DNA of 64,000 nucleotides from Trueperaceae bacterium. GTDB lineage: Bacteria; Deinococcota; Deinococci; Deinococcales; Trueperaceae. The notes under the pieces were generated by a model, which worked only from the letters and a program-made list of their open reading frames with translations, was not told the origin of the DNA and ran no database searches. Positions within the stretch are counted from its first letter, which is position 1. Every line of letters begins with the position of its first letter. Positions 1 through 12,168 of the stretch are shown here, piece by piece. The stretch lies in NCBI GenBank assembly GCA_034520945.1, contig JAXHNB010000005.1:831529-895528 (forward strand), read 5' to 3'. The position numbers were made by a program, and so were the translations under genes.

Positions 1-1
1 C

Positions 2-1237
2 CACCGCCGCCTGGGCCGCGATCTGGAGATCTTCACGCTGGACGATGAGATCGGGCCCGGCCTGCCGTTGTGGTTGCCGCGCGGCACGGTGATGGTGGAC
101 GAGATCGAGGCGCTCGCCAAGGAGATGGAGGCCAAGGCCGGCTACCAGCGGGTCCGCTCGCCGCACCTCAGCAAGGAGGACCTGTTCGTCAAGAGCGGCC
201 ACCTGCCGTACTACGAGCACGCCATGTACCCCGCCATGGACCTGGACAACGTGCGGTACTTCGTGAAGCCGATGAACTGCCCGTTCCACCACAAGATCTA
301 CGACGCCCGGCCCCGCAGCTACCGCGAGTTGCCGCTGCGGCTGGCCGAGTACGGCACCTGCTACCGCTACGAGGACTCCGGCGCGTTGATGGGCCTGATG
401 CGGGTGCGCAGCATGCAGATGAACGACGCGCACATCTATTGCACCGAGGACCAGTTCGAGTCGGAGTTCCTGGCCGTGATCGAGCTCTATTTCGAGTACT
501 TCCGCCTGTTCGGGATTGAAGAGTACGTCATGCGGCTCTCCAAGCACGCGCCGGAGGGTCTGGGCAAGAAGTACGTGGACGAGCCGGAACTCTGGCGCCG
601 CACCGAGGACATGGTCCGGCGCGTACTGCTCGAGAACGAGGTGCCGTTCACGGAGGCGGACGACGAAGCGGCGTTCTATGGCCCCAAGATCGACGTGCAG
701 ATCACCAGCGCCATCGGGCGCGAGTTCACGTTGGCGACCAACCAGGTGGACTTCGCGCAGCCGCAGCGCTTCGGCTTGACCTACGTCGCGGAGGATGGCA
801 GCCGCAAGATGCCGCTGTGCCTGCATCGGGCGCCCCTGTCCACGCACGAGCGCCTGATCGGCTTCCTGATCGAGCACTACGCCGGCGACTTCCCGCTGTG
901 GTTGGCGCCGGAACAGGTCCGGATCGTACCGATCGCGGACCGCCACGCCGAGTACGCCGAGCGGGTGCGTCATACCCTGGCCGCCCAGGGCCTGCGGGCC
1001 GAGACCGACCTGCGCAGCGAGCGCATGAACGCCAAGATCCGCGATGCCGAACTGTTCAAGGTGCCGTACACCCTGATCCTGGGCGACCGTGAGGAGGAGG
1101 CGGGCACCGTAAGCTTCCGCAGCCGCCAGGAGCCCGAGGCGAAGGGCGTGCAACTGGAGCGGTTCGTCGACCATCTCGTCGCGGCCCGCGACGCGCGCGC
1201 GGGTCGGGTCGCGCCGATCGCCGCCGCGACCGCCTGA
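2..1237 (+). CDS. thrS: Threonyl-tRNA synthetase (5'-truncated by window edge)
   Basis: Frame open from nt 2 (HRRLGRDLEIF...); KPMNCP, YRYE, MQMNDAHI, AFYGPKID and HRAP motifs; C-terminal anticodon-binding domain. Confidence 0.96.
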   Translation, partial: HRRLGRDLEIFTLDDEIGPGLPLWLPRGTVMVDEIEALAKEMEAKAGYQRVRSPHLSKEDLFVKSGHLPYYEHAMYPAMDLDNVRYFVKPMNCPFHHKIYDARPRSYRELPLRLAEYGTCYRYEDSGALMGLMRVRSMQMNDAHIYCTEDQFESEFLAVIELYFEYFRLFGIEEYVMRLSKHAPEGLGKKYVDEPELWRRTEDMVRRVLLENEVPFTEADDEAAFYGPKIDVQITSAIGREFTLATNQVDFAQPQRFGLTYVAEDGSRKMPLCLHRAPLSTHERLIGFLIEHYAGDFPLWLAPEQVRIVPIADRHAEYAERVRHTLAAQGLRAETDLRSERMNAKIRDAELFKVPYTLILGDREEEAGTVSFRSRQEPEAKGVQLERFVDHLVAARDARAGRVAPIAAATA

Positions 1238-1454
1238 GCCGAGGCCCCTCGGGGCGCGTCACCACCGAGGAAGCGCGCCGTCCGGGCCGGCGGGCATGGC
1301 GGGCGGGGCGACGCCGGGCCGTGCTTCGTGGCGACGTCTTCCCGGCCAATTGTCCCTTGTTCCGGCAGGAATGCGGTCCTAGTCTCGAGAAGGTCGAATC
1401 GGCACCATGCGGGCGGCGCACGACTCGTACGCTTTCACGAAGGGCAGGGACCCC

Positions 1455-3137
1455 ATGCCGCGCCTCGTTGCCATGCTCGCCCTCGCTGCCTGTGCCGCGA
1501 TCGCTTTCGGCCAGTCGATCTCCTCGATCGGTTCCAACGACGTCGTGACCGGCACGATCTCGGCCATGGAGTCGACGCACGCGTACCTCCTGGACCTGCC
1601 TCCGGGGATCGAGCACCTCGTCATCGACGTCGACGGGGGCGACCGGGACGCCGATCTGGCCGTCTATTTCGGCGCCGAGGAACGCTTCCGCGACACCAGC
1701 AGCGACACGGCCGCGTCGTACAGCCTCGCCTCCCCGTCGGCGGGCCAGTACCGAATCGAGGTACTGAACCTGCTGTTTCAAGAGCTGCACTACACCCTGA
1801 CCGTGTCGGCGCAAAGCCGCCGTGCGCCCGACCGGGAGGCGACCGCCGGACCGATCCAGGGCGACATCCGCCTCGGTGAAGCGCGCCGCGGCGTCGCGCC
1901 CGCGTCCCGGTCCGGGCACACCTACGACCTTGGCGTGCCCAGTGGCACGCACGCCTTCACCGTTCGGGTCGATGCCGGGGGACGCGACGTCGACCTCTCC
2001 GTGACGTTCGGGGGCCGAGAGATTTTCCGCGACGTGAGCACGAACCCGTACCCGGTGTTCCGCCTTCCCGATCCTGCCGCCGGTACCTACGCGCTCACGG
2101 TCGTCAGCCCCCTCGGCCGGGAGGTGCCCTACGTCCTCTCGGTCGAATCCCCAGGGGCGCCCACCACGACACGTCCGCCCAGTCCAGAACGGCCGTCCGA
2201 CGCGCCGGCCACCGCTCCGTCGCCCGGCGCGCCTGGGGACACGGCAGCGCCGGCCGGACCAAGCGCGTCCGCGTGGCGGCACGATTTCGCGTCGGGTGAG
2301 ACGTTGGGCTGGACGCTCGAGAACGGCTCGCTGTCCAATCCCGGTGGAGGGGGCCCCGGCGGCGGCGGGTACCTGTATGCGGACACGCCGAGCGATCGCG
2401 CGGTGGGGTACTTCGTGGCGCCCACCGAGCTGCTGGGGGACTGGTCGTCGCTGTCGTCGCTCACGCTCGTGCTGCGGCACGGACCGCAGTACGAGGGCGA
2501 GCTTTTCGGTCCGTACGAGTACGACGGCGTCGGCGACGTCGTGCTCGCCAACGGCGCGAAGACGGCGAGCTACGCGTTCCCGCGGGCCCCCACGCGCGCC
2601 TGGTCACCGCACGACGTGTCGCTCGTGGACGCGACGGGCTGGCGACTGGGGGGCGGCGCGACCAGCCTGGCGGAGGTGCTGGCCGACGTCACGTCGTTCG
2701 CGGTCCGCGCCGAGTACCTCGTTGGCCACGCCGACGCGGGGATGGCGAGCGTCGAGGCGTTCCGCGGCGGCTCCCTCGGCGGAGCAATGATGGAACCGAC
2801 CGTCACGGCGACGTGTACGACGACGGCCGAGGACGGCGCGATCGGCGATCTCGCGCCCGGCAGCCGCATCCACGTCGCGTGTCCGGCAGGGTGCACCGAC
2901 GGCGGCACGGTCTGGGGCCACGGCACGTACACCGACGATTCGGCCATCTGTCGCGCCGCGGTCCACGCCGGTGTTCAGGACGGCGCATACCCTGGCAGCG
3001 TTCTGATCCGGATCCTGGGCAGCCGCGACAGCTACGTGGGTGCCGAGCGCAACGGCGTCAGCTCACGGTCGTACGGGAGTTGGCCGCGCAGCTTCGCGTT
3101 CGGCGAGGGGTTCGACCTGAGGGACGGCGCCCGGTAG
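1455..3137 (+). CDS. Secreted multidomain protein: signal peptide, two PPC-like domains, Pro-rich linker, laminin B/IV-like domain, LCCL domain
   Basis: MPRLVAMLALAACAAIAFG signal; repeated DxDLxV...GxYxxxV units; YFVAPxxLLGDW...VLADVTSFAVRAEY; CPAGC...VWGHGTYTDDSAICRAAVHAG (LCCL). Confidence 0.7.
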   Translation: MPRLVAMLALAACAAIAFGQSISSIGSNDVVTGTISAMESTHAYLLDLPPGIEHLVIDVDGGDRDADLAVYFGAEERFRDTSSDTAASYSLASPSAGQYRIEVLNLLFQELHYTLTVSAQSRRAPDREATAGPIQGDIRLGEARRGVAPASRSGHTYDLGVPSGTHAFTVRVDAGGRDVDLSVTFGGREIFRDVSTNPYPVFRLPDPAAGTYALTVVSPLGREVPYVLSVESPGAPTTTRPPSPERPSDAPATAPSPGAPGDTAAPAGPSASAWRHDFASGETLGWTLENGSLSNPGGGGPGGGGYLYADTPSDRAVGYFVAPTELLGDWSSLSSLTLVLRHGPQYEGELFGPYEYDGVGDVVLANGAKTASYAFPRAPTRAWSPHDVSLVDATGWRLGGGATSLAEVLADVTSFAVRAEYLVGHADAGMASVEAFRGGSLGGAMMEPTVTATCTTTAEDGAIGDLAPGSRIHVACPAGCTDGGTVWGHGTYTDDSAICRAAVHAGVQDGAYPGSVLIRILGSRDSYVGAERNGVSSRSYGSWPRSFAFGEGFDLRDGAR

Positions 3138-3219
3138 CGTCAGCACCGGTCGGATCGGGCAAGGCGATGGATGCTGTCCGTTCCCGAGCGGCGCGTCGAC
3201 CAGATGTGCGACGCGGGCG

Positions 3220-4131
3220 TCAGTCGTCGTCGGGATCGGGTCGCGCCAGGATGGTGACCGACTCGATGCGGTCCGGGACGGGGAACAGGCCTACCGCGAG
3301 CTCGCCCGTGGCGCGCCCCATCACGCCGCGGCGCGCCCCGATCTGGAACGAGCGGCCCTCGTCCGGCACCGATTCCAGTTCCTCCCTAAGCCAGTCCTCG
3401 ACGGTCCCGTCCGCGCCGCGGGCCGCCTCTACGCCCTGCTCGGCCAGCGTGGCGGCAGGCGCGCTCAGGCCGGCCACGATGGAGGGGTTCTGCGGGTCGA
3501 TGCGGGTCAGCGCGTCCAGCACCTCCAGGCCGGAACGTACCTCGCCGAACACGGTGTGGTTCCCGTCCAGCCAGGGCGTGGCGGCGAAGGTGATGAAGAA
3601 CTGGCTGCCGTTGGTGTCCGGCCCGCGGTTGGCCATGCTCAGCAGGCCGGGACGGTCGTGGCGAAGGCCGTCTTTGATCTCGTCCTCGAAGGTGTAGCCG
3701 GGCCCGCCCGCGCCGGTGCCCGACGGGTCGCCGGTCTGCGCCATGAAGTCGTCCAGAACCCGGTGGAACGAGACGCCTTCGTAGTAGCGATGCAGCGCGA
3801 GGAACACGAAGTTCTCGACCGTGCGGGGCGTGCGGCCTTCGTACAGGTCCACGGTGAGCGTGCCCGCCGTGGTGTCGATCTCCGCACGGTAGTCCGTGTC
3901 GGGCGCCAGCACCTGTTCGGGGCCGTCGAAACGGCGCACCGGCTCGTCGCTGCGGAACGGCACCGCGGCGTACCCCTCGGCGTCGGCGCGGGGCGCGTCC
4001 GCCACGTTCGGCGTGCCCTCGGCCCGAGGCGCCGGCGTCACGCCGCCGCCCCACAGGTCGCCGTACGCCACCCACGCCCCGCCGGCGAGGAGCGCCGCGA
4101 CCACCAGGGCGACCGCCATCACCTGGCGCAT
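3220..4131 (-). CDS. Membrane-anchored cyclophilin-type peptidyl-prolyl isomerase
   Basis: [46 protein letters not shown]-terminal TM helix. Confidence 0.93.
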
Positions 4132-4398
4132 GCCGACCTCGGCGCGTCTGGCTCCGCTCCGCCCCCGGGAGGGCCGCTCGCGTGCGTCATGGCGCCGATT
4201 CTACCCCGGCGGCGCGCAGGCGACGTGACCTCGCGTAAGGGCGCCGTGAGCACCAGGACGTAGACTGAGCCCGAAGGTCGTGTGGCAGAACGCGGCTGGA
4301 GGGAAGGGTCCCTGCGGTGGCTGGTGTCGTTGATGTGGGTAAGCGCGAGGGCATGGCCGGCTGGACCGGTTCTAACTACCCCCTGGGACGTTGGTCTC

Positions 4399-5712
4399 AT
4401 GGATAAAGTGCGAGAACTTCAGAGGCGACTGTGGGCTGCGGCGAAGCGGGCTCCGAAGCGTCGTTTTCACGCGTTGTATGACCGTATCTACAGGGGTGAC
4501 GTCCTGTGGGAGGCGTGGGAGCGGGTGCGCCGGAATCGTGGTGCGGCTGGTGTGGATGCTCAGTCCATCGCGGATGTGGAGGCGGTTGGTGTCGAGTCCT
4601 TTTTGGAGGGGCTTGGTGCTGACTTGCGTGAGGGCAGGTACCGGCCGCAGGCGGTCTTGCGGCGGTACGTTCCGAAGGCTGATGGGAGGGAGCGGCCGCT
4701 GGGGATTCCGACGGTTCGGGACCGGGTGGTTCAGATGGCGGCGAAGCTGGTGTTGGAGCCTGTGTTCGAGGCGGATTTCTTGCCTTGTTCGTATGGGTTT
4801 CGGCCGAAGCGGGGCGCGACGATGGCGCTGGAGGAGCTGCGGAAGCAGGGGAACTCTGGTGGTCGTTTCGTGCTGGAGGTCGACGTCAGGGATTACTTTG
4901 GGAGCATCGACCACGAGAAGTTGATGAAGTTGGTGGCGTTGCGTGTTTCGGATCGGCGGGTGCTCAAGTTGGTCAGGCAGTGGCTCCGTGTGGGTGTGAT
5001 GGAGGATGGTGTGGTGTCTCGGGTGGTTGCTGGGACGCCGCAGGGCGGTGTCATTTCACCGTTGTTGTCCAACATCTACTTGCATTATCTCGATCTCTTG
5101 TGGACGCGGCATTGTTCTCATCTGGGGACTTTGGTGCGGTATGCGGATGACTTCGTGGTCGTTTGCAGGTCCCGCAGGGATTGCGAGGAGGCTCGGGCGC
5201 GTCTCGAAGTGATTTTGGGGCGTTTGGGTCTGGAGTTGCACCCGGAGAAGACGAGGATGGTCGACCTTTTCGATGGTAGGGAGGGGTTCGATTTCCTCGG
5301 TTGTCATTTGCGGAAGCGCATGTCGGGTCGGATTTGGGAGCGTCAGGGTAGGCGCGTGTACTTCTTGAATCGTTGGCCCTCGAAGCGTGCGATGAAGCGA
5401 ATTCGGCAGCGTGTAAAGGAGTTGACCCCGCGGCGTAGGTGCCATGAGGACATCAGGCACGTGATTCGTGACCTGAACGTGGTGTTGCGTGGCTGGGGGA
5501 ACTACTTTCGGACCGGGAATGCTGCGCGTTGTTTCAGTGCCCTTGATCGTTACGTCTGGGAGCGGCTGCTCCGTTTGCGCATCGAGCGTAAGGGGCGGCA
5601 CGTTCGGGCGGGCGATGTGGCGCGTTGGACGCGTGCGACTTTCTATCGGCTTGGCCTTCATCGCCTTACTGGCACGGTGCGTTACCCGGCACCGGTTCGG
5701 AGTGTTGCGTAA
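4399..5712 (+). CDS. ltrA: Group II intron reverse transcriptase/maturase, no endonuclease domain
   Basis: RT0 (WERVRRNRGAAGVD), RPLGIPTVRDRVVQ, SYGFRP, GTPQGGVISPLLSNIYLH, YADD, FDFLG, domain X (LRGWGNYF). Confidence 0.95.
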   Translation: MDKVRELQRRLWAAAKRAPKRRFHALYDRIYRGDVLWEAWERVRRNRGAAGVDAQSIADVEAVGVESFLEGLGADLREGRYRPQAVLRRYVPKADGRERPLGIPTVRDRVVQMAAKLVLEPVFEADFLPCSYGFRPKRGATMALEELRKQGNSGGRFVLEVDVRDYFGSIDHEKLMKLVALRVSDRRVLKLVRQWLRVGVMEDGVVSRVVAGTPQGGVISPLLSNIYLHYLDLLWTRHCSHLGTLVRYADDFVVVCRSRRDCEEARARLEVILGRLGLELHPEKTRMVDLFDGREGFDFLGCHLRKRMSGRIWERQGRRVYFLNRWPSKRAMKRIRQRVKELTPRRRCHEDIRHVIRDLNVVLRGWGNYFRTGNAARCFSALDRYVWERLLRLRIERKGRHVRAGDVARWTRATFYRLGLHRLTGTVRYPAPVRSVA

Positions 5713-5737
5713 TGTTGCATCTCGAGAGGTCACCGGT

Positions 5738-5770
5738 AAGCCGTGTGCGGGAAATCCGCACGCACGGTTT
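5738..5770 (+). ncRNA. Group II intron catalytic domain V
   Basis: AAGCCGTGTGCGGGAAATCCGCACGCACGGTTT: AGC triad, GAAA-type loop, AC bulge. Confidence 0.9.
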
Positions 5771-5800
5771 GAAAGGGGGTCTTGACTGAACTTCAGTGAA

Positions 5801-6889
5801 ATGCTCTCGAACCTGGTGGAACGGGGCGCCTCCGACGTGCACCTTCACTGCGGATTGCCGCCGCTGGCCCGCATCAACGGCAAGCTCACGCCGGTGGGCC
5901 AGAACAAGGTGACGCCGTCGTTTACGGAGAAGCTGCTGGACGTCATGTGCGACGACCGGCAGCGCGCCACGTTCCAGGAAAAGCACCAAGTCGACATCGC
6001 GTACAGCGTCTCGGGCCTGGGCCGCTTCCGCGTGAACCTGTTCCGGCAACGCGGATCGGTCAGCGCCGTGCTGCGCGTGATCACCGGCGACGAGTCGGTC
6101 CTGAAGGTGGTGAACCTCCCCCAGGACACCATCGACTTCATTCGCGACAAGGAGAAGGGGCTGGTCCTGGTCACCGGCCCGACCGGCTCCGGCAAGTCGA
6201 CCACGCTGGCGCGGATCATCGACGAGATCAACCAGGTGCACAACAAGATGATCGTCACCGTCGAGGACCCGATCGAGTACCTGCACCGCTCCAAGAAGTC
6301 CGCGATCGTGCAGCGCGAGATCGGCCAGGACGCCACCACCTTCGCCGACTCGTTGGTGGCGGCCATGCGGCAGGACCCCGAAGTGATCATGATCGGCGAG
6401 ATCCGCGACCACACCACGGCGGCAGCGGCGCTGTCGGCGGCGCAGACCGGCCACCTGGTGTTCAGCACCCTGCACACGCAGGACACCGTCCGGACCATCA
6501 ACCGCATGATCGAGCTGTTCCCCCCGCACGAACGGGCCACGGCGCGGATCCTGTTCGCCGAGTCGCTCGTCGCGATCGTCAGCCAGCGCCTGGTGCCCCG
6601 GCACGACAAGCCGGGCCGGGTCGCGGCGATGGAGATCATGAAGGGAACCCTGCGGATCAAGGACCTGGTGCGCGACGAGGAGCGAGGCTCGGAGTTGTAC
6701 GACGCCATCCGCGACTCGACGTTGGACGGCATGCAGCTGATGGACGACCACCTGGCCCGCCTGTACGCCGAGGGCGTGATCTCGTTCGAGACCGGCCTGG
6801 CGTCCGCCACCAGCCAGCAGGCGTTCAAGATGTCCACCACCCAGGTGGACGTCGAGGCGGGCCGCGACCCGCGCGCCACGCAGTACTAG
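5801..6889 (+). CDS. pilT: PilT/PilU family type IV pilus retraction ATPase (start could be in-frame CTG at 5786)
   Basis: GASDVHL, GRFRVNLF, GPTGSGKST, EDPIE, AMRQDPEVIMIGEIRD, TGHLVFSTLHT. Confidence 0.9.
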   Translation: MLSNLVERGASDVHLHCGLPPLARINGKLTPVGQNKVTPSFTEKLLDVMCDDRQRATFQEKHQVDIAYSVSGLGRFRVNLFRQRGSVSAVLRVITGDESVLKVVNLPQDTIDFIRDKEKGLVLVTGPTGSGKSTTLARIIDEINQVHNKMIVTVEDPIEYLHRSKKSAIVQREIGQDATTFADSLVAAMRQDPEVIMIGEIRDHTTAAAALSAAQTGHLVFSTLHTQDTVRTINRMIELFPPHERATARILFAESLVAIVSQRLVPRHDKPGRVAAMEIMKGTLRIKDLVRDEERGSELYDAIRDSTLDGMQLMDDHLARLYAEGVISFETGLASATSQQAFKMSTTQVDVEAGRDPRATQY

Positions 6890-6905
6890 GCCCGCCCCGC
6901 CCTGC

Positions 6906-10670
<3,765 letters not shown>

Positions 10671-10808
10671 GGGCCCAGCATACCGACGGGTCGGTGGGGT
10701 CCCCGCCAGGCACCGCGGCCCGCCGTGCTGGGCGGGCAGCGGGCGGCGCGGGCCGCATGCGGTTGCGTGCCGGCGGGCCGCCGCGCCCGTCCGTGTCGCA
10801 CATGCGCG

Positions 10809-10837
10809 TTGACACCCCCGGGTCCGCGTGATACCTT
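10809..10837 (+). promoter_or_regulatory. Sigma70-type promoter of tRNA operon
   Basis: TTGACA (10809-10814), 17-nt spacer, TG-n-TACCTT (10832-10837), 12 nt upstream of tRNA-Cys. Confidence 0.7.
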
Positions 10838-10849
10838 TCGAAGGCGCTT

Positions 10850-10924
<75 letters not shown>

Positions 10925-10956
10925 CCCCCTTCGGCTACGGACCGTCGTAGCCGCAT

Positions 10957-11031
10957 AGGCGCGTAGCTCAGTGGGAGAGCGCTACATTGACACTGTAGAG
11001 GTCGGCGGTTCAATCCCGCCCGCGCCTACCA
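10957..11031 (+). tRNA. tRNA-Val(GAC)
   Basis: AGGCGCG/CGCGCCT acceptor stem, CTACA-TTGACAC-TGTAG anticodon arm, GGTTCAATCCC T-arm, CCA. Confidence 0.96.
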
Positions 11032-11044
11032 AGAAGGACCCGAG

Positions 11045-11096
11045 AAGATCCCGCTGGTGGCCCGTACGTTCGTGCGGCGCGCAGCGGGATCTTTTC
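11045..11096 (+). terminator. Probable intrinsic terminator after tRNAs
   Basis: AAGATCCCGCTG...CAGCGGGATCTTTT stem followed by T-run. Confidence 0.6.
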
Positions 11097-11144
11097 ACGT
11101 GCCGCGTCGGCGGCGCGGAATCGTATCTGCGAGCAACGCCACGC

Positions 11145-11519
11145 CTACCGCTGCGTCCGAGATGCGAGCGCGATCTCGAAACGCGTCGCCGACCCGCCCG
11201 GTTCGATCGCGGTCGTGAGCCGCACCTCCTCGCCGATCTCTATACCGTCGGGAAGCCACGCGGCGGGCCAACGCGCGGCGGGAAGACCGTCCCCGACCAA
11301 CGTCGCCGTGACGCCGTTCGAGGAGACGACGCGGAGGGAGGCGTCCGCCACGGCGGGGACGCGGACGATGGGCGCGCCACGGTCGCTGCCGAGCAGCAAA
11401 AGCGGGCTTGGCAGCAGCACACCTGCGGCGTAGGCGATCGCTGCCACCACCGCGCAGGCGGCGACGGTTCTCGCAGCATTGCGGCGATTCCGCCGGCGCG
11501 GAGGGCCGTGCTGACTCAT
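11145..11519 (-). CDS. Hypothetical membrane-anchored protein
   Basis: ATG overlaps the cytochrome c stop (ATGA coupling); basic N-terminus then hydrophobic helix. Confidence 0.5.
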   Translation of the reverse strand: MSQHGPPRRRNRRNAARTVAACAVVAAIAYAAGVLLPSPLLLLGSDRGAPIVRVPAVADASLRVVSSNGVTATLVGDGLPAARWPAAWLPDGIEIGEEVRLTTAIEPGGSATRFEIALASRTQR

Positions 11520-11986
11520 TCGCCGATCGCGCCGGGTTGCTGCTCGCGCTGCCACGGTTCCCAGCGAGACTTCACGAAGGCGAGCACCGCTTCGACCTCG
11601 GGGTCGCTCCAACGGGCGCCGACGGCCGGCATTTGGACGCCGCCGTCGCGGATCAGGCCGATGATCTGGCGGTCGGGATGGTGCCAAGCGTGGGCACTGC
11701 CATCGAGGGGTGGGGCCGGGATACCGGCTTGGGCGGCGCCTCCACCCTCGACACCGTGGCATGTGGCACAGCTGTCCTGGTAGAGCCGCTCCCCGGTCGC
11801 GAGCACGTCGGCCGACACGGGCGACGGCGCGTTCGCGCGCGACCGGTTCGAGGAGACGCGAAGCGCCACGACGGCGAGGAGGGCCACGGCGAGCGACGCC
11901 ACAGCGGTCGCGGTGGCGGGGCGGCGTCGCCACCACGGGCGACGGCGCTTGGGGGACGACTGGGCCGGGCGCTCACCCTTGCGCAC
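11516..11986 (-). CDS. Membrane-anchored monoheme cytochrome c
   Basis: CATCH heme motif, APPLDGSAHAWHH, distal Met (QMP); GGAGG RBS before GTG. Confidence 0.85.
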   Translation of the reverse strand: MRKGERPAQSSPKRRRPWWRRRPATATAVASLAVALLAVVALRVSSNRSRANAPSPVSADVLATGERLYQDSCATCHGVEGGGAAQAGIPAPPLDGSAHAWHHPDRQIIGLIRDGGVQMPAVGARWSDPEVEAVLAFVKSRWEPWQREQQPGAIGE

Positions 11987-12168
11987 GTACGCCTCCTGAT
12001 GCGCGGGGCGCGATCGCGGGCGGGACCGGTGCGCGTTGCGTACCGCCACCGGCGGCCTCGATCGAATGGGGGGTGCGGTGCTTCAGATCGAGTATGACCA
12101 TGCGTGCAAGGTACCCGGCGACTGTTAAGGCCGTGCAAAGTCGCGCGGCGTCCGAGCCCGTGGGCGCG

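Follow-up and report, generated by a model that had tools for sequence, protein, structure and literature searches.

A fragment of a group II intron in the pilT start codon of a Trueperaceae bacterium: extent, relatives and probable origin

Truncated copies are given as the commonest state of bacterial group II introns in PMC4424553, and a specialised IIB1 clade (Avi.groEL, EcKTE56.groEL) is described from proteobacteria at initiation or termination codons, with an insertion of 300–700 nucleotides (nt) at the base of domain I (DI; the other domains are named DII to DVI) and a CL1-type reverse transcriptase (RT) that carries an endonuclease domain (Michel et al. 2007, as related in PMC12584367). 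PMC12584367 also presents the case of Trichodesmium, in which the RT of the RIR intron serves dnaN introns without an open reading frame (ORF) in trans. No description of endonuclease-less introns that home to leaderless start codons was found in the literature searched, which included PMC7306698, PMC3753933, PMC4424553 and PMC3552965 and did not extend to Michel et al. 2007. We analysed a stretch of 64,000 nt from a Trueperaceae bacterium (GenBank assembly GCA_034520945.1, contig JAXHNB010000005.1, positions 831,529 to 895,528 of the forward strand; the whole stretch is called the window, and positions are counted from its first letter), in which a fragment of a group II intron lies within the start codon of the gene pilT. 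With a probability of about 0.8, this fragment is an immobile copy, truncated at both ends, of a mobile group II intron that encodes no endonuclease and whose lineage homes to promoter-proximal start codons. It is best read as a recent and polymorphic product of intron-targeted integration, that is, as a known kind of object and not as a new element.

Limits and composition of the insert

The limits of the insert were read from an empty site. Contigs of two public metagenome runs from two different studies, X1 and X3, join position 4273 directly to position 5787, skipping 1513 nt with zero letters common to both sides of the joint. The joint contig of X1 has a depth of 25.8 and that of X3 a depth of 13, with a short side of 62 nt, and the flank contigs of the public runs differ from the window at 0–2 positions. 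The insert extends from 4274 to 5786 on the plus strand, in sense orientation with pilT. The empty site is an intact pilT GTG, and the insert splits this start codon without a target duplication. The G at 4273 (plus strand), the first base of the original GTG according to the X1 and X3 joint and the N-termini of relatives, is the last host base before the insert, while the TG at 5787–5788 (plus strand) is the end either of the host GTG or of the terminal ATG of the intron, the two being indistinguishable, and reads CTG together with C5786. Host and intron overlap by 2 nt on the left (CG, 4272–4273) and by 1 nt on the right (T, 5787). The same limits appear in the base composition, with a guanine-cytosine content of 70–83% in the left flank against 54–69% within the insert, and in the homology to full-length relatives and to an ORF-less copy on contig C1 of the same assembly, which begins at 4272–4274 and ends at the insert boundaries.

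The host DNA on the left carries TAGACT at 4261–4266 (plus strand), which is taken from same-genus relatives and from the layout of the intron family as the -10-type hexamer of a probable leaderless pilT promoter. BLAST homology with the C1 copy reaches back to 4266, and the reading of this part as intron sequence was rejected, since positions 4266–4273 fit the host equally well; they were assigned to the host because relatives keep a 6-nt spacer between box and start and because the empty-site joint places them there. The left flank is uncovered in runs X4 and X5, and neither allows any inference on the site.

The original prediction had seen a 6-bp direct repeat, GACTGA, on both sides of the element and had taken it for a possible target duplication. 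Both copies are present, at 4263–4268 and 5784–5789, but they do not bracket the element, because the empty joint sets the insert at 4274–5786: the left copy, made of most of the -10 box TAGACT plus GA, lies 5 nt outside the insert, and the right copy, made of the end of the conserved DVI 5′ strand plus the following TGA, straddles the junction. The hexamer occurs nine times in the window, and by a rough estimate a 6-mer common to two fuzzy boundaries of about 20 nt is expected in roughly 5% of cases. No 6-bp duplication exists at the empty-site joint, and the empty site that had been predicted differs from the actual one, in which 4273 is followed by 5787 and the GTG is intact.

The fragment retains the 3′ part of the ribozyme, from within DIII to the middle of DVI, all on the plus strand. 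Of DIII, the 3′ two-thirds are kept at 4274–4313, with the distal hairpin at 4276–4297 and, at 4307–4312, the 3′ strand of the basal stem, whose 5′ partner strand is absent; in an RNAalifold consensus of 14 full-length copies, GGGGAY.. pairs with ..GGUCCC and an inner hairpin folds, and the copy in the window begins just before this inner hairpin. DIV occupies 4315–5735 and encloses the DIVa region and the ORF. Its closing stem would be formed by 4315–4322 and 5728–5735, a pairing that is read from the letters and that is accompanied by compensating changes in the C1 copy. The catalytic hairpin of DV lies at 5738–5770 and was recognised by the Rfam family RF00029 (DV/DVI), which matches 5736–5817 with 44.1 bits against a gathering score of 40. 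The DV of the window is identical to that of 12 of 20 aligned related copies, with the remaining eight differing at one or two positions. Only the 5′ strand of DVI (GGGGGTCTTGAC) is present, at 5775–5786, and its distal hairpin, the 3′ strand with the branch-point A and the intron-end CCAA are missing, while in 20 relatives DVI is a helix with a bulged A located 7 nt before a conserved ..CCAATG end. The alignment of DVI to 5773–5817 proposed by Rfam was rejected as spurious, as it enters pilT codons with low posterior values and as the relatives show the real 3′ strand. The domain-I (D1–D4) families of Rfam gave no match in positions 1–12000 of the window even at E ≤ 1.

Compared with an autonomous mobile intron, the fragment has DV, but neither the GUGYG 5′ end and a DI with exon-binding sites nor a DVI with branch A and 3′ splice site. 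It is expected neither to splice nor to move, because it lacks the 5′ splice site, the exon-binding sites of DI, the branch A and the 3′ splice site. Most of what had been described from the letters alone is confirmed by these comparisons, namely the closed DIV, the good DV, the lack of DI and DII, the lack of a DVI 3′ strand and bulged A, and a short intron-like RNA before the ORF, for which about 130 nt had been given and about 125 nt were measured. The minimal RNA from DIII to DV that had been proposed is correct for DIV and DV, but DIII is not complete.

The RT/maturase gene is intact, as had also been claimed together with its YADD motif. The open frame runs uninterrupted from 4282 to 5712, and alignment with relatives puts the real start at the ATG at 4399, so that the gene (4399–5712, plus strand) encodes 437 amino acids (aa) followed by a TAA stop, with the YADD motif and a thumb/X (GIIM) domain and with no endonuclease domain. 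Pfam returned RVT_1 (3.7e-34) and GIIM (2.4e-16), and the NCBIfam model TIGR04416 scored 410 bits against a cut-off of 300. The motifs YADD and GWGNYFR align with those of relatives, the identity to four intact relatives being 70–75%. The protein ends after GIIM, with no HNH match in Pfam. The best matches in PDB are RTs of group II introns, with 7uim at 178.6 bits followed by 6me0 and 6ar1.

Related copies and the start-codon target of the family

Apart from the fragment, the genome contains a single related stretch. It lies on contig C1 and is 91% identical to 4266–4445 and 93% identical to 5721–5787. This sibling is a full-length, ORF-less intron at approximately 113092–113975 of G000:C1 (L002, approximately 1007–1888), in which Rfam recognises domain I (RF02003, 73 bits) and DV/DVI (44.5 bits). 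On the upstream side it extends beyond the common part by about 500 nt, up to a GTGCG 5′ end, and downstream it contains the rest of DVI with the bulged A. Its insertion point follows the ATG of a hydrophobic ORF of 63 codons, with TAGGCT located 6 nt before this ATG. Searches of the assembly revealed no further copy, no copy with the ends found in the window and no second intact RT of the intron family. Over 4276–4389, the region before the RT start codon in which the RT-binding DIVa is expected, the window and the sibling differ at one position, and because of this the RT could act in trans as maturase and RT for the ORF-less sibling. Among 40 related genomes searched, no close RT was detected (best 47% aa identity), and for this reason the intron family looks horizontally acquired.

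Run X1 contains a longer copy of the same intron, on a contig of 1751 nt with 0 differences from the window over 4272–5773 (1502 nt). It is preceded by 249 nt that are absent from the window, 30 of which were compared and closely match the C1 intron, and it differs from the C1 sibling, meaning that the two are not the same copy. Other X1 contigs run past 5787 into the rest of DVI, and X5 contains a full-length relative of 2089 nt with 62 differences. In X1 the two flanks have depths of 37.6 and 34.2, with 25.8 at the empty joint and 52.7 in the intron body; the X1 flank contigs end at 4273 and begin at 5787 with the empty joint on a separate contig, and the X3 contig passes through the joint. 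Judged from these contigs, X1 would contain two alleles with the insert in the minority, and the insertion appears to be recent and still polymorphic.

A total of 80 loci with a related RT (L025–L104) were fetched, the best of them with 76–77% aa identity. The relatives are full-length introns of about 2 kb with 538–636 nt before the ORF. The RT of the window is 57–77% identical over the best segment to most members of the lineage, with two at 49%, and DV and the DVI 5′ strand are near-identical. The hosts of this RT clade (at least about 57% aa identity) are Myxococcota, Planctomycetota, Acidobacteriota and Actinomycetota, represented by metagenome-assembled genomes and isolates.

The 5′ ends of the relatives were located by the intron sequence alone, and 46 of the 80 loci had at least 17 nt of flank. 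A start triplet lying 6–8 nt after TAnnnT directly precedes the intron in 45 of these 46 (ATG 39, GTG 6 and ACG 1), while only 15 of 2305 other ATG or GTG triplets in the same flanks, taken as a control, show the TAnnnT layout. The 3′ end of the intron reads ..TAYYWATG in 67 of 76 loci, and the host frames inspected continue from that ATG. The window has the same arrangement, with TAGACT, 6 nt, and then G, insert and TG, in sense orientation. Since the layout is that of 45 of the 46 relatives, the pilT start is therefore a typical target of the lineage and the fragment lies in the typical orientation. Of the family 3′ end the window retains just the TG, which could equally be host sequence. 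In the closer relatives AAGGA is found 7 nt before the terminal ATG, and it is absent in the actinobacterial branch, because of which a replacement ribosome-binding site is not general in the lineage.

A few members of the lineage depart from the common pattern in other respects. Many copies of the actinobacterial branch (L033–L098) start with TTGCG instead of GTGCG after the start triplet. L068 is the sole member without TAnnnT before the ATG, and the frame after its 3′ ATG is unlike a gene start; it may be off-target. L037 has GTG on both sides (5′ exon end GTG, intron end ..CCAGTG), while other copies at GTG sites keep the 3′ ATG. In L084 (2498–3800) the RT frame is broken and identity drops to 31% from about residue 95, with ribozyme ends and site that look normal.

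Origin of the fragment and its effect on pilT

Within the explanation favoured here, a single aberrant integration is the origin to which we give somewhat the greater weight. An intron particle would have targeted the pilT start (TAGACT, 6 nt, GTG) in sense orientation and would have reverse spliced at the start codon. Synthesis of complementary DNA (cDNA) may then have skipped from the two terminal bases of the intron to the top of the DVI helix, covered DV, the ORF and part of DIII, and ended by an early exit inside DIII, with a final switch to the upstream exon at the 2-nt overlap (1 nt at the other end). What such a course leaves would run from the 3′ part of DIII through DIV, with its RT gene, and DV to the 5′ strand of DVI. 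This one-step route is preferred to later trimming of a complete intron, because no difference from the longer copy is seen over 1502 nt and because the empty allele is still present.

Several points weigh against this reading. No contig among those listed bridges the filled junctions 4273/4274 or 5786/5787, and for this reason the filled allele rests on the assembly of the window, for which X1 is possibly the source sample. Since rare variants are lost from contigs, allele frequencies can be judged only poorly from ratios of depth. The longer X1 copy could supply the RT for the C1 sibling too, if it is in the same cell. To our knowledge, the presumed jump points, at the top of the DVI helix and in the inner loop of DIII, match no known favoured site of template switching. 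Both the expression of the RT and the silencing of pilT, which are discussed below, are deduced from the arrangement of the sequence.

The strongest alternative, which we regard as possible but clearly less probable, is normal retrohoming of a full-length intron after the pilT GTG, followed by two separate internal deletions, the first of which would have removed the host TG together with about 500 nt of intron comprising DI, DII and the beginning of DIII, and the second about 45 nt of DVI up to the last TG of the intron. This course yields the exact sequence observed and an apparently clean insertion of 1513 nt, because the terminal TG of the intron equals the host TG; the family site fits as well, and short repeats (CG and T) are found at both deletion ends. 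However, three events are needed, yet the 1502 nt compared with the longer copy contain 0 substitutions, and in the same sample the empty allele persists. No full-length intron at pilT was seen among the contigs listed, an absence that in itself proves nothing.

The capture of a cDNA at a break through microhomology had been offered in the original prediction as one of two possible origins, and this idea comes close to the one-step integration preferred here. The microhomology amounts to 2 nt and 1 nt and not to 6 bp, the site is the homing site of the family and not a random break, and a full insertion with two deletions explains the same sequence. In its strict form we consider it improbable. 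Here no particle would have done any targeting, and the pilT promoter would have suffered a random double-strand break or a collapsed fork, whose repair, by end joining or by microhomology template switching, copied 1.5 kb either from intron cDNA or from another intron copy present as DNA. Overlaps of 1–2 nt without a duplication are what end joining or replicative template switching leaves, and a longer donor copy is present in the same sample. However, the fragment lies inside the start codon of a site of the TAnnnT-6 nt-GTG type, in sense, as in 45 of the 46 relatives, and we estimate that a random break would hit such a site in about 1 in 1000 cases or fewer.

An assembly artefact, in which the true genome is empty and the fragment was spliced in by the assembler, is very improbable. 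The lack of a bridging contig at the filled junctions speaks for it, as does the fact that X1, which may be the source sample, contains the empty joint at a depth close to the flank values. However, junction identities of 2 nt and 1 nt are far below the overlaps used by assemblers, both flanks are collinear with relatives, and the flank contigs of X1 break at 4273 and 5787, as a second allele predicts, while X3 runs through. Least tenable is the ribozyme-independent retroelement that the original prediction had put forward, its ends fixed near 4263 and 5789 and marked by a 6-bp target duplication, for although the intact RT with minimal RNA and the GACTGA near both ends suggested it, it is already contradicted by true junctions without duplication, by the identity of the left GACTGA with the conserved pilT -10 region and of the right one with a conserved DVI strand, by ends that are unique in the genome (the one other copy returned by a genome BLAST check, that on C1, runs past both ends of the fragment into bona fide DI–DIII and a full DVI), by the lack of a close RT in the 40 relatives searched, and by an ORF identical to that of the longer copy, which carries upstream intron sequence.

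The insert occupies the interval between a cyclophilin-type isomerase gene (3220–4131, minus strand; Pfam Pro_isomerase 1.7e-44) and pilT (5789–6889, plus strand; T2SSE 6e-47), of which codons 2–5 are found at 5789–5800, followed by an ORF from the ATG at 5801, the own start codon of the gene being lost. The isomerase–pilT pair stands without an insert in all six same-genus genomes holding the pair, with a spacing that ranges from 310 to 536 nt. The identity to the same-genus pilT genes is 81–84%, with homology resuming at 5787 in five genomes and at 5784 in the sixth (G002). In these genomes pilT starts with (G/A)TG AAC TTC AGC, 6–7 nt after a hexamer that is TAGAGT in four of the six and TAGAGA or TACACT otherwise. 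A sigma-70 scan of 4000–5900 gave 0 sites, a scan that demands a -35 box and is uninformative on a promoter with a -10 element only.

With this arrangement, the pilT promoter would now read straight into the RT gene, with the transcript starting at about the first base of the fragment and the RT 125 nt downstream, and for pilT, with CTG in place of GTG, the earliest usable start would be the ATG of codon 6 (5801). The event thus probably knocks down one pilT paralogue, other T2SSE ATPase genes being present in the genome, and brings an RT under the control of a host promoter. A compensatory origin of the ATG at 5801, making up for the lost start, was considered and dropped, as the rows listed for contigs of the empty allele contain no difference at 5801–5803.

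Two further features were recorded away from the insert. Two tRNA genes lie on the plus strand at 10850–10921 and 10957–11028 (Rfam tRNA, 69–70 bits), just beyond the end of a large dnaE-like ORF on the minus strand (6906–10925). Elsewhere in the genome, at approximately 576000–576900 of G000:C5 (L106 1038–1325, L004), an unrelated group II remnant contains matches to group-II-D1D4-3 (132 bits) and D1D4-1 (58 bits). After these comes part of an RT whose match is confined to residues 26–150 of the window RT, at 43% identity.

Comparison with known systems

The family resembles the IIB1 clade, as far as that clade is described in PMC12584367, in its association with the start codons of host genes. 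It does not belong to IIB1 as described there, for it has only about 540–640 nt before the ORF and a 437-aa RT without endonuclease. The likeness to Trichodesmium, again as given in that source, is that the assembly has one intact RT gene and one complete ORF-less intron of the same family; in contrast, the RT gene here stands in a dead fragment and not in a splicing intron, and its action in trans is putative. Among the members of its own lineage, the pilT copy is distinguished by the loss of the 5′ end and of all of ..CCAATG except the last two bases, and because this 3′ end is lost, it destroys the host start codon instead of replacing it. It nevertheless provides a clean GTG-site example for an intron lineage that lands on promoter-proximal start codons.

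As general background, 5′-truncated "dead on arrival" copies of non-LTR (non-long terminal repeat) elements such as L1 keep their 3′ end and make target duplications. In them, as in the pilT fragment, an incomplete cDNA is attached to the target through a few bases of microhomology, whereas the pilT fragment has also lost most of its 3′ end and shows no duplication. The free-standing G2L4 RTs (PDB 9d5x and 9d4s) are alike in that a group II RT is found without a working ribozyme around it. Their match is weak, however, with 95 bits against 166–179 bits for the intron RTs, and the pilT RT is not of the G2L type, as it is flanked by DIII, DIV, DV and half of DVI and its gene is identical to that of the longer copy.

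A more speculative extension, which we hold to be rather doubtful, is that the lineage finds its targets by structure and not by sequence. What the intron recognises would be the single-stranded bubble of the open complex that RNA polymerase forms at leaderless promoters, and base pairing would be limited to the start triplet, in parallel to the class C introns, which are users of terminator hairpins. The pilT copy would then be a snapshot of an abortive event, and its ribozyme-less RT under the host promoter might persist as a maturase and RT in trans for the ORF-less sibling. If true, this would mark the beginning of domestication into a free-standing group II-like RT.

A close parallel is found in the remnants of RmInt1 in Sinorhizobium, which, according to PMC4181065, are likewise immobile chromosomal pieces of a mobile intron without parts of the ribozyme. 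In contrast to these, the pilT fragment has lost both ends but kept its RT intact, and the empty site and a longer copy are found in the same community. Because both the empty site and a longer copy with an identical ORF were seen there, the pilT event can be dated as recent and its junctions can be read exactly. Such a case is rare in nature, for the empty site, the longer copy and the aberrant integration product of a bacterial group II intron are all resolved here to the single base.

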